From: a virus
Lineage: Duplodnaviria > Heunggongvirae > Uroviricota > Caudoviricetes
IMG/VR virus record: IMGVR_UViG_2690316227_000016
DNA: 8,280 nucleotides
Strand: one strand, 5' to 3'
Part shown: positions 2,325-5,237 of the stretch, in pieces
Position numbering within the stretch: position 1 is the first letter of the stretch
How the letters are laid out: each line of letters starts with the position of its first letter
Position numbers and translations under genes: made by a program
The notes under the pieces: model-generated
Databases searched by the model: none
Seen by the model: the letters and a program-made list of their open reading frames with translations, nothing else
What the model was told of the DNA's origin: nothing

Positions 2325-2516
2325 TTATCCTTTGGGTTCTATGCCGCGCCGCTTTAGTTCAGTGCGCCCCAACTCTTTAAGCCAGTTGGCTAGGCTTATG
2401 CCGTCGCTCTGTGCTTCTTTGTCGAATTGCTCTTTTAGCTCTGGAGAAATTCGCATTCTGAATTGTGGGGATTGCCCGTCCCCTTTAGGGCTTTTATCGC
2501 GTTTGATTGTTGACAA
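2325..2516 (-). CDS. Arc-like ribbon-helix-helix DNA-binding protein (putative repressor)
   Basis: The segment SPQFRMRISPELKEQFDKEAQSDGISLANWLKELGR follows the phage P22 Arc pattern (PQF-x-LR...G-x-S-x-N). Only the TTG start at 2516, with AGGTGA 4 nt upstream on the minus strand, keeps the predicted beta-strand; the first ATG (M21) would remove it. Confidence 0.5.
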   Translation of the reverse strand: MSTIKRDKSPKGDGQSPQFRMRISPELKEQFDKEAQSDGISLANWLKELGRTELKRRGIEPKG

Positions 2517-2561
2517 GTGGTCACCTATTGAATTAGCCTTTCCATTGTTAGGTGGTCACCT
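2517..2561. promoter_or_regulatory. Divergent control region with two GTGGTCACCT direct repeats (2517-2526, 2552-2561) and a TTGACA hexamer (2510-2515)
   Basis: Exact 10-mer repeated 35 bp apart. Each contains the odd-centred palindrome GGTCACC. The repeats lie between the divergently oriented Arc-like gene and the Icd-like genes. A matching -10 was not found. Confidence 0.4.
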
Positions 2562-2588
2562 TAACACAAGAGCACTTAAAAAAGCAAA

Positions 2589-2619
2589 GCCCCGCAAGTG
2601 TCATTACCACTCGCAGGGC
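2589..2619 (+). promoter_or_regulatory. Leader stem-loop upstream of the first Icd-like gene
   Basis: GCCCCGCAAGTG (2589-2600) and CACTCGCAGGGC (2608-2619) pair at 10 of 12 positions around a 7-nt loop. No T-run follows, so it is not a terminator. Confidence 0.3.
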
Positions 2620-2650
2620 TTCTAACCAACAACGTAAACTAGGAGCCGTT

Positions 2651-2848
2651 ATGGTTGCCGTAAATCATATACCACACCTTGTACACACACAAACGGCCTT
2701 TGTGTGGCGTTTTCTGGCCCTGAGTGCCGGAGAATCTCAAATCATCCACGTAACCGCCTGGACGGAACGCGAAGCGCGTAGCCGTTGCCCGTCCGGTTGT
2801 GTTGCTGTATTCGCCGCCCGTATTCGTCAGGGGTCACATCATGCGTAA
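2651..2848 (+). CDS. Icd-like small protein, copy 1 (host cell division inhibitor Icd-like family, tentative)
   Basis: 65 aa with an AGGAG 6 nt upstream of ATG 2651. Shares the motifs FVWRF...T...TEREAR...FxARIRQG with the ORF at 3135. The family name is from recollection of P4-like prophage annotations, not a search. Confidence 0.5.
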   Translation: MVAVNHIPHLVHTQTAFVWRFLALSAGESQIIHVTAWTEREARSRCPSGCVAVFAARIRQGSHHA

Positions 2849-2868
2849 AAACCGCTTGCAAAAAATTA

Positions 2869-3105
2869 TAACGGGGCTGTATGCTTCCCCCGTCGCCCAC
2901 ATGGCGACCGGGTTTAGCAGCCTGAATACTGTAGCGGACAGCCGCTTATATTCCGATATGCGGTTTTTTTGTGTCCGTAAGCCTACCCATACCCGCATTA
3001 TGGCGGGGCGTAACGGGGGAGCCTTTGCGCTCGCTGGTTCCTACAGTGCCAGTCTGCTAACCCTGTTACGTCTCGCCACCCCGTTTAGCAGCGTAGTAGC
3101 GAGAC
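2869..3105 (+). repeat. Duplicated non-coding module between the Icd-like genes
   Basis: TAACGGGG at 2869-2876 and 3011-3018. GTTTAGCAGC at 2912-2921 and 3083-3092, followed by GTAGCGGACAG and GTAGCGAGAC respectively. A near-complementary CTGCTAA-CCC element sits at 3054-3063. Small hairpins at 2871-2893, 2892-2908 and 2992-3007. Confidence 0.4.
2934..2970 (+). terminator. Intrinsic terminator-like hairpin plus T7
   Basis: GCGG-aca-GCCGC (2934-2945) and a CCGC...GCGG stem (2942-2963) followed by T7 (2964-2970). It lies inside the apparent N-terminal extension of ORF 2799..3299, which argues that the extension is non-coding. Confidence 0.5.
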
Positions 3106-3134
3106 TCCTTAAAATTACTGTAGGAGCCTTTCAC

Positions 3135-3299
3135 ATGGCTGTATCCGCACGCCCTTACTTTGTCTGGCGCTTTATGCAGTGCCACCACAGCTGCATTGAT
3201 GTATTCACCGTTACCGCTGCCACTGAGCGCGAAGCACGCGCCCAGCTGCCGCACGCACATCTGATTTTTGTCGCCCGTATTCGTCAGGGGGTTTTGTGA
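3135..3299 (+). CDS. Icd-like small protein, copy 2 (paralog of 2651..2848)
   Basis: 54 aa. The TAGGAGCC ribosome-binding context 8 nt upstream of ATG 3135 mirrors that of copy 1. Conserved motifs YFVWRF, TEREARAQLP, FVARIRQG. Its TGA stop overlaps the next start (TGATG at 3297-3301). Confidence 0.5.
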   Translation: MAVSARPYFVWRFMQCHHSCIDVFTVTAATEREARAQLPHAHLIFVARIRQGVL

Positions 3300-3526
3300 T
3301 GAATAAAGTCCCTTTTGAAGTATTAAGCCACTCTGAAAACGCATTAACTAAAGCGCGCGAAATGAATGCGCTGTTAATTAAGTTAATAGACGTGCCGGAA
3401 GATGGTGGAGAACCTGCATCATTAATATTTGCCGCCGTTCAGACATTACTATCGCCTGTAATTGATGAACTGGATAAGGCGATGGCAATTCACGAAAATA
3501 ATAAAGCGCCCCACACCGGAGAATAA
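3299..3526 (+). CDS. Hypothetical small acidic protein (75 aa)
   Basis: ATG 3299 overlaps the stop of the preceding gene, suggesting translational coupling. No family recognised. Confidence 0.45.
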   Translation: MNKVPFEVLSHSENALTKAREMNALLIKLIDVPEDGGEPASLIFAAVQTLLSPVIDELDKAMAIHENNKAPHTGE

Positions 3527-3531
3527 AAATA

Positions 3532-3831
3532 ATGAAACTTAAATATCCTGGCTTAACTGCCAGCGGCAAAACTCGCACTAAATTCATGTGCGGGGATATT
3601 TACCGCGATAAGTACGGCGGAACGGTAATGATTAAGGGCGTGGAGGAACGGCGCGTAACTTACCGCCGTGAAGGCTACGAATATGATTGCGTTATGCCTG
3701 TTTATCAGTTCGACCGTGATTTTTATCTGGTACAGGCAGCGCCCCGCAGTAAGCCAACCAGCAGGGAGAAAGCACGCGCCAATATTCAGGAAATAAGAAA
3801 GATGTTGAACGTATTCAGGGGTAAAAAATGA
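3532..3831 (+). CDS. Hypothetical protein (99 aa)
   Basis: Begins MKLKYPG. Its stop overlaps the start of the replication ATPase (ATGA at 3828-3831). Protein-like composition; possibly a prophage DUF family, unverified. Confidence 0.5.
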   Translation: MKLKYPGLTASGKTRTKFMCGDIYRDKYGGTVMIKGVEERRVTYRREGYEYDCVMPVYQFDRDFYLVQAAPRSKPTSREKARANIQEIRKMLNVFRGKK

Positions 3832-5237
3832 AACTTGCACCGAACGTAAAACAATTACCGAAAGACAAATACACCGAAGCAATTATTTTCGCGGGGAATG
3901 ATGCGCACTCATTTGCAGAGCACTACATCATTGCACAGGCCAAAAAAGCAGGCGATCCAGTCCCCCCCGTTTATCTGGGGTGTTATCAGTTAAGCGAACT
4001 GGATAACCTCCAGATTGTTGATGATGGGCGATACAGGGCGACGGTGATACGCGCCGGAAATATTGAAGAGCCGCAGCTGTTAACCATCGCCACGAAACTG
4101 GCGATCGCCGGAGTCCAGGAGGCGCGGCTAATTTCTGAAAATTTCGAATTGCTGGAGGAATGGAACGACCAGCTTCCACGGCTTAGGGAGGCATGGGAAC
4201 GCGGGGAAAGCCTGGTCATGAAAAAAATCCCCCAGCGAAAAACCACGCTACCGATGAGCGTTGGATCTACCGGATACGACACGCAGCTTGATTACGTGGT
4301 AAAGGGGATTATTCCGGCATCGTCGCTTTGCAGCATATACGGGGCGAGCGGTTCCTATAAATCATTCCTTGCCGGATCGTGGGCGTGTCACGTTTCCACG
4401 GGCCGCCAGTGGGGAGGCCGCAGGGTGGCGCATGGCGCTGTTCTCTATGTGGTTGGTGAAGGCGGTATTGGCGTTCCGCGTCGTGTAAAAGCCTGGGAGG
4501 TTGTGCACGGGGAGCAGGTGAAAAATCTTTACCTTGTAAACCGTCCCATCTTTCCGGCTGTCCCGCTTGATGTTGATGAACTGGTTATTGCTGCCAGCCA
4601 GGTTGAGCGGGAAACGGGTAAACCGGTTCTAATGATTATTCTGGACACGCTGGCGCGTTGCTTTGGCGGCAATGACGAAAATGACTCCCGTGACATGGGG
4701 GCGTTTATCCGTGGATGTGACGAACTGAAACGACGCACAGGGGCCACGGTGCTGGTGGTTCACCATTCCGGCAAGGATGAAACAAAGGGCGCGCGTGGTT
4801 CCAGTGCATTCCGTGCATCGCTGGACGCTGAATACAGGATACGCAGAGAGGACGCAGGAAGCGAAGCGCTGGTCATCTCATGCACCAAAATGAAGGACGC
4901 GGAGGAACTCAAAGAGGCTGCCTATGATTTGCGGGTTGTGGAGCTTTTTACCGACGCTGACGGCGAATTAATTACGTCGCTGGTGGTGGTGGATGAGCCG
5001 CGCCCACCCGTTGAACTGGAGCGCATCGAGGAGGCAGGCAACAAGACGGAAAACCATACCGCGCTATGGGGGTGCATCCGTTCACGCACACAGAACGGCG
5101 ACAAGTGCACGATCCCGCTGTTGCGTGATGACATGAAGAAGATGGGATACGAAATGAAGCACTTCCGGCGCTGGCTGGGCAAGCTGGAAAAAGACGGCGT
5201 TATCTATGTTGACGGCGATGATGTAGGGCCACTGTAA
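3828..5237 (+). CDS. Replication ATPase/helicase, RecA-like (AAA_25/RepA-type); probable satellite replication initiator
   Basis: 469 aa with a P-loop-like GASGSYKS, a Walker B-like PVLMIILD, and the VLVVHHSGKDETKGARGSSAFRASLD block typical of RepA-like NTPases. The C-terminal roughly 100 aa could be a DNA-binding domain. An iteron array follows directly. Confidence 0.85.
   Translation: MKLAPNVKQLPKDKYTEAIIFAGNDAHSFAEHYIIAQAKKAGDPVPPVYLGCYQLSELDNLQIVDDGRYRATVIRAGNIEEPQLLTIATKLAIAGVQEARLISENFELLEEWNDQLPRLREAWERGESLVMKKIPQRKTTLPMSVGSTGYDTQLDYVVKGIIPASSLCSIYGASGSYKSFLAGSWACHVSTGRQWGGRRVAHGAVLYVVGEGGIGVPRRVKAWEVVHGEQVKNLYLVNRPIFPAVPLDVDELVIAASQVERETGKPVLMIILDTLARCFGGNDENDSRDMGAFIRGCDELKRRTGATVLVVHHSGKDETKGARGSSAFRASLDAEYRIRREDAGSEALVISCTKMKDAEELKEAAYDLRVVELFTDADGELITSLVVVDEPRPPVELERIEEAGNKTENHTALWGCIRSRTQNGDKCTIPLLRDDMKKMGYEMKHFRRWLGKLEKDGVIYVDGDDVGPL

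Follow-up and report, generated by a model that had tools for sequence, protein, structure and literature searches.

A C4-family antisense RNA and its targets as the probable immunity switch of an Escherichia coli phage-satellite island

The DNA analysed here, a stretch of 8,280 nt (the window; IMG/VR virus record IMGVR_UViG_2690316227_000016), is part of a phage-satellite island of Escherichia coli of the phage-inducible chromosomal island (PICI) type. Within it, at 2517-3299, the spacer between two small Icd-like genes, icd1 and icd2, encodes an antisense RNA of the C4/CI family together with both sets of its targets; the element is real, well supported and of a known kind. The succession of a leader with targets, a terminator, the RNA gene, further targets and an icd or kil gene identifies it as an immunity module of the P1/P4 type. 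We read the region as the immunity switch of the island, combining repression by C4 with a translational bypass, and give this reading a probability of roughly 0.85. The initial annotation of this DNA had proposed an RNA-based switch with the layout of P4 and P1. That layout is upheld by a C4 model match, ~80% identity to the P1/P7 immI region, Icd-like open reading frames (ORFs) and covarying elements, and with these checkable parts borne out the interpretation as a switch is likewise supported.

The C4 gene and its paired targets

The C4 gene, its recognition elements, their targets and the two Icd-like genes are arranged as follows.

2651-2848, plus strand: icd1, Icd-like protein of 65 amino acids (NCBIfam NF033153, 64.7 bits)
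2909-2924, plus strand: leader hairpin 2 of the leader RNA, with the upstream single-strand target GGGTTTAGCAG (2910-2920) in its loop
2927-2934, plus strand: upstream loop target TACTGTAG, in the leader RNA
2996-3083, plus strand: C4/CI-family antisense RNA gene (Rfam RF01695)
3038-3048, plus strand: C4 hairpin loop UUCCUACAGUG, pairing with 2927-2934 and 3116-3126
3054-3063, plus strand: C4 3' single strand CUGCUAACCC (in DNA CTGCTAACCC), pairing with 2910-2920 and 3085-3091
3083-3092, plus strand: downstream single-strand target GTTTAGCAGC, in the loop of hairpin 3070-3076/3099-3105
3116-3126, plus strand: downstream loop target TACTGTAGGAG, overlapping the icd2 Shine-Dalgarno sequence AGGAG (3122-3126)
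3135-3299, plus strand: icd2, Icd-like protein of 54 amino acids, analogue of P1 icd and P4 kil (NCBIfam NF033153, 55.5 bits)

P4 CI and P1 c4 had been named as possible relatives of a structured spacer, and both the family and the structure are found. Rfam model RF01695 matches inside the spacer over its full length, with model positions 1-87 at 2996-3083 on the plus strand (71.5 bits, E = 7.7e-13, gathering score 45); the same model scores P4 CI at 74.9 bits and P7 c4 at 69.6 bits. The immI region of P1, P7 and relatives shares ~80% DNA identity with 2904-3093, and P7 carries c4 as an annotated misc_RNA at the aligned position. The 292-nt spacer folds better than all 200 of 200 shuffles (z = -3.76). 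In the C4 fold, a long closing stem around two hairpins, pairing is kept in 97.1% of cells across 19 distinct sequences, and 13 of the 27 pairs show changes in both partners, as counted on an alignment fitted to the covariance model; slid controls give only 1-5 such pairs. The acceptor-like stem and the GCCACC at the 3' end align with the annotated ends of P7 c4, and by this alignment the mature C4 RNA is predicted at ~3002-3080 (~79 nt), ending GCCACC. In the family of P1/P7 c4 and P4 CI, the RNA is a stable species of ~77 nt, cut from a longer precursor with RNase P acting at the 5' end.

An alternative partner for the 3' strand of the C4 closing stem (3070-3076) is 3099-3105, and the resulting hairpin presents GTTTAGCAGC in its loop. 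Of the 7 pairs in this helix, 2 show changes in both partners, and pairing is kept in 99% of cells among 16 sequences including P7. The hairpin may be a form of the precursor, in competition with the folding of mature C4.

We use neutral names for the recognition elements of C4, loop and single strand, as their correspondence to a' and b' of the P1 literature is unconfirmed. The copies of GTTTAGCAGC and the complementary CTGCTAACCC at 3054-3063 lie where the initial annotation had located them. GTTTAGCAGC is found exactly at 2912-2921 and 3083-3092, and with one mismatch allowed it has 3 matches against a shuffle mean of 0.58, with 2/200 shuffles reaching three. The pairing of about 17 nt that had been claimed for the complementary element holds roughly, in that the raw complementarity extends a few bases with one mismatch; the computed duplex between the single strand and its upstream target is 10 bp with one bulged U (-13.5 kcal/mol). 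That claim was sound for GTTTAGCAGC and CTGCTAACCC, which do pair, but it overlooked the loop at 3038-3048, the most variable element and the one directed at the ribosome-binding site. Complementary to this loop, TACTGTAG is repeated at 2927-2934 and 3116-3123, where 0.10 occurrences are expected by chance. The downstream duplexes have energies of -14.9 kcal/mol for the loop and -8.4 kcal/mol for the single strand, and the AGGAG at 3122-3126, within the loop target, stands 8 nt before the icd2 ATG at 3135. A chance origin of the repeats was considered and is ruled out by the shuffles and by homology.

The pairing is preserved through extensive sequence change. Among 124 related loci from IMG/VR, in which C4 genes were located by covariance model, 18 modules carry 13 loop types and 7 single-strand types, and in all 18 the loop and the single strand each have an upstream and a downstream partner at fixed positions, giving four duplexes. 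The alignment used to count pairs in these target helices was made with MAFFT, independently of any structure; slid controls had 25-47% of cells paired.

Loop with downstream target: 11 pairs, 6 changed on both sides, 98.3% of cells paired
Loop with upstream target: 8 pairs, 6 changed on both sides, 96.9% of cells paired
Single strand with downstream target: 7 pairs, 2 changed on both sides, 100% of cells paired
Single strand with upstream target: 10 pairs, 2 changed on both sides, 100% of cells paired

For every one of the 13 loop types the module's own target gives the best duplex, upstream (13/13) as well as downstream (13/13), and mean duplex energies for cognate versus other targets are -13.6 versus -5.5 kcal/mol downstream and -10.6 versus -6.1 kcal/mol upstream. 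The alleles of the two elements assort independently; the window and L021, for example, have the same loop core and different single strands. Covariation of the elements in homologous islands, the absence of which had been named as grounds for abandoning the proposal, is thus present in the fold and with both targets. At the level of single islands, the JNEC-KY203 island (97% identical) differs by 2 nt in the loop and has matching changes in both targets, and a P1-like phage differs from P7 in exactly the loop element and its two targets. In an alignment of the window, JNEC-KY203, P7 and P4, the loop, the upstream site and the site over the icd2 ribosome-binding site change together:

Window: C4 loop CCUACAGU; upstream ACTGTAG; downstream ACTGTAGG
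JNEC-KY203: C4 loop CCCAAAGU; upstream ACTTTGG; downstream ACTTTGGG
P7: C4 loop UCACAAUC; upstream GATTGTG; downstream GATTGTGA
P4: C4 loop CCUGUGAA; upstream TTCACAGG; downstream TTCACAGG

This strong natural covariation suggests that the hairpin loop is a fast-evolving immunity determinant with many alleles, the window carrying a new one. It also bears on the notion that the module is no more than a relic, left behind by recombination with a P1-like phage and now without a function in the island. The island is indeed mosaic, an identical 264-bp module is found in another island at another site, and many related islands do without the module. Loop alleles nevertheless differ between near-identical islands, each with the corresponding changes in its two targets, and the fold, the targets and the open frame described below are all intact, a pattern that requires continuing selection. 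We therefore regard a relic as very improbable indeed, the least credible of the alternatives weighed here.

Both small genes flanking the spacer had been called Icd-like, and this is confirmed by profile search, in which both exceed the 25-bit cut-off of NCBIfam NF033153 ('host cell division inhibitor Icd-like'), a family that also takes in P4 Kil (76.1 bits) and P7 Icd (52.7 bits). The two proteins are 44-52% identical, and the shared ribosome-binding context noted earlier is evident as TAGGAGCC, common to both start sites. P1 Icd acts on FtsZ (PMC11897509). The icd2 stop overlaps the start of the next ORF (TGATG at 3297-3301). The view of the paralogous pair as one symmetrical unit does not survive, as icd1 with its own leader is a separate, widespread module that usually lacks C4. 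Of 5426 complete E. coli genomes, 945 have a match to the study region, mostly across the icd1 part only; no C4 is present within 3 kb at ~60 of 79 icd1 loci, and in the O157-type island the replication genes follow directly after icd1.

Leader, long open frame and proposed switch

Upstream of the C4 gene lie a leader RNA with its terminator and a candidate promoter, and the whole module is spanned by a single open frame.

2841-3299, plus strand: 152-codon frame, analogue of P4 eta (no stops; openness conserved)
2856-2885, plus strand: candidate internal promoter TTGCAA, 18 nt, TATGCT, analogue of P1 P51b and P4 PLE (by alignment)
2892-2970, plus strand: leader RNA of the IsrK / P4 seqA / P1 a1b1 type (Rfam, DNA alignment)
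2892-2908, plus strand: leader hairpin 1, in the leader RNA
2940-2965, plus strand, with T run 2964-2970: intrinsic-terminator-like hairpin, analogue of P4 t1 (fold, alignment)

Homology of the leader to that of P7 and P1 is clear from the DNA alignment (~80% identity) despite a sub-cut-off score with the Rfam c4-a1b1 model. The terminator placed by the initial annotation at 2934-2970 is a real terminator-like element, better positioned at 2940-2970, where the 3' arm of an interrupted hairpin runs into the T7 run at 2964-2970. It forms in the minimum-energy fold, is aligned to the terminator of the isrK model and is conserved in P7, P1 and P4. An internal promoter at 2856-2885 is suggested by its -10 hexamer, which aligns with TATAGT of P7 and P1; just upstream of the first leader hairpin, P4 has TATAGT and the L043 locus and P4-type modules have TATGAT. 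Neither the promoter nor the terminator is listed by consensus scans, and both therefore rest on alignment and folding.

The spacer had been described as non-coding, and here the analysis departs from that description, since a conserved frame at 2841-3299 reads through the leader, the terminator, the C4 gene and the downstream targets and ends as icd2, as does P4 eta. Its ATG at 2841 overlaps the icd1 stop (ATGCGTAA) and lies upstream of the candidate promoter. In the window this frame has 0 stops versus 5 and 7 in the other two, and across 17 unique modules frame 0 is without stop positions versus 14 and 10 in the others. Of 29 satellite copies, 28 keep the frame open; it is closed in P7, and also in L043 and L047, the latter two being phage-like loci with a single icd. 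In L006-type copies paired 1-nt indels shift 34 codons into another frame that is still open, and it is therefore translatability that is conserved and not protein sequence. For the N-terminal 98 residues there is no match in Pfam or NCBIfam. NCBI's Prokaryotic Genome Annotation Pipeline (PGAP) annotates the frame as an extended Icd-like coding sequence (CDS). We initially took this long CDS for a simple over-extension and dropped that idea, the frame being conserved and having a precedent in P4 eta. The RNA and the translated frame are probably both real, and the frame is likely to be translated as a regulatory read-through and not for a functional domain.

The same observations allow the opposite emphasis, in which the spacer is ordinary coding DNA for an Icd-like protein of 152-155 amino acids, as in RefSeq, with incidental repeats and hairpins. 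An open frame conserved in 28 of 29 copies, with an ATG that shares bases with the icd1 stop codon, and a long CDS annotated by PGAP in nearly all of 140 genomes, are what such a gene would give. The absence of a family for the N-terminal 98 residues, the lack of amino acid conservation with 34 codons read in another frame in L006-type copies, and the closed frame in the P7, L043 and L047 homologues all speak against it, as does the fact that the same DNA scores as C4 at 71.5 bits and covaries in the manner of an RNA, both in its fold and with two targets. We consider an ordinary coding gene improbable.

The preferred reading, an immunity switch based on C4, can be set out as a working model. 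In the silent state a weak internal promoter at ~2856-2885 would make the leader RNA, and most leader transcripts would end at the terminator (2940-2970) as a short IsrK/seqA-like RNA. Transcripts that read through would be processed to the stable C4 of ~79 nt (~3002-3080), with its tRNA-like acceptor stem and 3' GCCACC, which would then pair with its own transcript family via the loop (3038-3048) and the 3' single strand (3054-3063). Downstream pairing (3083-3092 and 3116-3126) is predicted to bury the ribosome-binding site of icd2, presumably the first gene translated from the internal promoter. With icd2 untranslated, transcription would terminate and the translationally coupled replication genes would stay silent. 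Upstream pairing (2910-2920 and 2927-2934) takes place beside the terminator and probably tunes termination, and with it the level of C4, as in P4. On induction transcripts would start upstream of icd1, and ribosomes finishing icd1 could restart at the overlapping ATG 2841 and translate through leader, terminator, C4 and targets into icd2. Translated upstream transcripts would thereby become insensitive to C4, as with translation of P4 eta, and the loop sequence would set the specificity of immunity.

The promoters, RNA processing, repression, termination and bypass are steps that we infer from homology, as are the production and stability of C4; what the sequences show is the family, the fold, the pairing with its covariation and the open frame. 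Several observations weigh against this model. The candidate internal promoter matches at 8 of 12 positions, under the scan threshold; a sigma-70 consensus scan found no site reaching its 9/12 threshold and identified no upstream promoter. The terminator is absent from the output of the consensus scan, a simple scan that missed it because the stem is interrupted. For the leader, Rfam RF03163 (c4-a1b1) scores 45.5 bits at 2879-2928, 1.2 below its gathering score of 46.7, with the P4 seqA region likewise under the cut-off at 44.1 bits, and RF01394 (isrK) scores 35.7 bits at 2892-2970, terminator included, against a gathering score of 50. The one broken copy of the long frame, L011, has a 1-nt deletion in it, and among satellite copies as close as these, at 84% mean ungapped identity, shared inheritance could partly explain the conserved openness. 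The last of these opposing points is experimental and comes from the homologous locus of Salmonella phage Gifsy-1, where results indicated that short IsrK activates orf45-anrP, and not that the processed RNA of ~80 nt lying downstream acts as a repressor (PMC4825925).

The Gifsy-1 precedent suggests a different division of labour, in which the leader 2892-2970 activates translation of the downstream small ORF in trans and C4 is a by-product of processing. The isrK model aligns with 2892-2970 including the terminator and gives P4 seqA 60.8 bits, which lends this scheme some substance, although the window itself falls below the isrK cut-off. The strongest covariation connects the C4 loop with the site over the ribosome-binding site, which fits occlusion, and C4 itself is the best-conserved and best-scoring element. 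The genetics of P1, P7 and P4 (see also PMC10111431) is moreover that of repression by a processed RNA. Activation by the leader is accordingly unlikely in our estimation, if somewhat less so than a purely coding spacer. The leader could also titrate C4, which would make repression and an IsrK-type model compatible.

Upstream control, putatively gated genes and exchange of modules

The remaining features of the region are the control DNA upstream of icd1 and the genes downstream of icd2.

2517-2577, strand not assigned: divergent control region between a leftward RHH-like gene (2516->2325) and icd1 (sequence read)
2586-2622, strand not assigned: conserved 15-bp hairpin in the icd1 leader (terminator scan)
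3299-5237, plus strand: downstream operon, putatively gated (Pfam profiles, gene order)
GTG 3296 or ATG 3299, to 3526, plus strand: ORF of 75-76 amino acids (ORF read)
3532-3831, plus strand: DUF4222 protein (Pfam, 79.5 bits)
3828-5237, plus strand: AAA_25 replication-type NTPase (Pfam, 144.6 bits)

The order of zones in the window, from int and an alpA-like gene through regulatory and replication zones to captured late genes, matches that of Gram-negative PICIs and capsid-encoding PICIs. The integrase-type ORF at 1-1242 has a counterpart annotated as integrase in a related island, the AlpA-like gene at 1739-1945 has a weak AlpA score (17.6 bits, cut-off 21), and further genes match AAA_25, SSB, Terminase_2 (small terminase subunit) and Phage_capsid profiles. 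Close relatives on E. coli chromosomes, which are PICI or capsid-encoding PICI elements, adjoin tRNA-Pro or other sites and carry capsid, decoration, protease or portal genes. The gene order downstream of icd2 is repeated in related islands, where a primase or a DUF927 protein replaces the AAA_25 protein.

Between the AlpA-like gene and icd1, the plus-strand ORF 1960-2625 (221 amino acids; a hypothetical protein in relatives) is rich in Cys, Ser and Arg and looks spurious. The minus strand opposite it holds a plausible RHH gene (2516->2325) and an ORF of 62 amino acids (2282->2094), and some related islands have a minus-strand gene of the YlcI/YnfO family annotated at this place.

The RHH-like gene (2325-2516, minus strand) scores 20.4 bits with Pfam HicB/RHH, just below the cut-off of 21. 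Beside it the direct repeat GTGGTCACCT, each copy with a core GGTCACC, occurs at 2517-2526 and 2552-2561, and the two copies are likely candidate operators. A regulated upstream promoter, the analogue of P4 PLL, may be placed in 2517-2577. Other islands have unrelated inverted repeats in place of this stretch and retain the leader to its right; the different inverted repeats at the operator position suggest interchangeable sets of repressor and operator.

The hairpin at 2586-2622 lies directly upstream of the icd1 ribosome-binding site and reads on the minus strand as an intrinsic terminator (2622->2586) with a T-rich tail to ~2578. Related islands have at least 5 stem variants in which the pairing and the minus-strand T-rich tail are kept; beyond the hairpin the sequence is mosaic. 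Also on the minus strand, within the interval 2578-2692 that holds both features, a TATGAT (2669->2664), with TTGTGT 17 nt upstream of it, is invariant in 29 unique sequences, a conservation that is ambiguous because the motif is located in icd1 codons. One might picture a cis-antisense RNA of ~80 nt over the icd1 start, running from the TATGAT promoter to the terminator 2622->2578 like the sar RNA of P22, together with immunity cassettes that can be stacked; we offer this combined idea as a speculation that is probably wrong. If there were such an antisense RNA, the replication operon would stand behind two RNA gates in series, and if cassettes were stackable, the two-element code of each module could define satellite immunity groups. 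We also entertained a degenerate C4 upstream of icd1, where a hairpin followed by UCUAACC resembles hairpin 2 and the single-strand element, and dropped it. With a C4 covariance model built in this study, the window gave no further match up to E = 0.1, and the only extra match in an Rfam search of the window at E up to 10 was a meaningless rnk-leader (26 bits, E = 0.43).

Of 5426 complete E. coli genomes, 140 have the P1-type module, in every case in the chromosome; it is nearly always annotated within an 'Icd-like protein' CDS. A profile search of genome contigs with the alignment of icd1 and icd2 gave one locus. Every satellite copy of the P1-type module for which upstream sequence is available is directly preceded by some Icd-like gene, and at 9 loci a second, P4-type C4 module precedes the Icd-like gene upstream of the P1-type module. 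These tandems, with a C4 of the P4 CI type followed by one of the P1 type, are L008, L010, L015, L018, L020, L021, L031 and L032, all at ~2384-2471, and L127, at 2850-2937. In the tandem satellites both modules are complete and lie in one operon, each with its own cognate targets and its own icd. At several of them the P4-type module carries the first 24 icd1 codons as an in-frame fusion, which starts its long frame, and the icd that ends this fused module has a C-terminal half equal to that of icd1. The modules therefore behave as cassettes that are gained and lost by recombination between similar 5' parts of icd genes. The E. coli EH41 locus (L130) carries at 12001-12264 a 264-bp module that is 100% identical to window positions 2871-3134. 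The island there is a different one, located between cspD and clpS; its integrase also differs, and it has three Icd-like annotations. The identity of the modules indicates a recent exchange of cassettes between islands.

Comparison with known immunity systems

In sequence the module is closest to immI of P1 and P7. The ~80% DNA identity runs from the upstream target through c4 to the downstream target, the fold is the same, and so are the single-strand element CUGCUAACCC and the order of leader hairpins, terminator, c4, targets and icd. In both systems the target of the loop extends over the ribosome-binding site of icd, and translation of icd is coupled to that of the following gene. The loop allele is different (CCUACAGU in the window versus CGUAAGU in a P1-like phage and CACAAUC in P7), and so are the genes under control, which would be replication genes in the window and the antirepressor ant in P1 and P7. 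The window module is further distinguished by a preceding Icd-like gene and by the long frame that spans it and is closed in P7; it has no C1 operator, and its upstream control region is unrelated.

In logic the nearest system is P4, where the likeness is one of element and circuit. P4 is likewise a satellite with a gated replication operon, CI matches RF01695 (74.9 bits), seqA matches the isrK and c4-a1b1 models, Kil, the small gene after seqC, is Icd-like, and a long frame runs across seqA, CI and seqC into kil as 2841-3299 does here. The logic is probably also shared, in that an internal constitutive promoter would be under immunity and translation would make upstream transcripts insensitive. 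The eta frame of P4 has kil as its 3' end, transcripts from the internal promoter undergo CI-dependent termination, and late transcripts from the upstream promoter translate eta, which prevents termination; these points from Forti et al. 1999, like the logic just given, are summarised in PMC10111431. P4 differs in being much more distant in sequence than P1 and P7, in having ~77 extra nt between seqA and CI, in an eta N-terminal part that matches Pfam Phage_ASH, which the window frame does not, and in coupling eta to vis, an alpA homologue, whereas the window frame is coupled to a separate icd1. In P4 itself (L003, 8171-8812, minus strand) Phage_ASH (PF10554, 82.2 bits) matches the translated seqA-CI-seqC part of eta, so that this protein family is built largely over an RNA gene. 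A partial 'ash family protein' called by PGAP between two Icd-like calls in the E. coli island L129 may have the same origin.

Gifsy-1 shares the succession of a two-hairpin leader with terminator, a processed RNA of ~80 nt and a small ORF in its IsrK/orf45/STnc1160 region (PMC4825925), and IsrK was called a structural homologue of P4 seqA RNA by the authors of that study. The orf45/STnc1160 RNA downstream of IsrK lies at the position expected of a C4 homologue. Differences are the isrK score of only 35.7 bits in the window and the interpretation of Gifsy-1 as antirepressor activation and not as immunity of a replication operon (PMC4825925).

Gram-negative PICIs were first described without an obvious master repressor (PMC6092414). 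An RNA of the C4/CI type between the alpA-like and replication genes would supply a repressor-like function for at least a subset of them, as a survey of 2023 had pointed out (PMC10111431). There, Rfam C4 and isrK profiles match CI and seqA relatives in several E. coli PICIs, in a 'Bro zone', and in Gram-negative and helper-embedded PICIs the immunity RNAs lie between the integration and replication zones as they do in the window. That paper uses the terms 'CI' and 'seqA', and a search of the open-access literature found no paper joining 'C4 antisense' with PICI or satellite terms. The C4 gene is invisible in standard annotation because in ~140 complete E. coli genomes RefSeq has it within a gene labelled 'Icd-like protein'. 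Our findings leave the accepted C4/CI mechanism unchanged. Beyond what the consulted parts of PMC10111431 contain, which are without an allele-level analysis, a two-element specificity code, the tandem stacking of P4- and P1-type modules or an Icd gene before the module, the present comparison adds a base-level map of the module, covariation that marks the loop as the probable fast-evolving determinant of immunity, and evidence that a translational bypass of the P4 eta type may have been kept in P1-type satellite modules.

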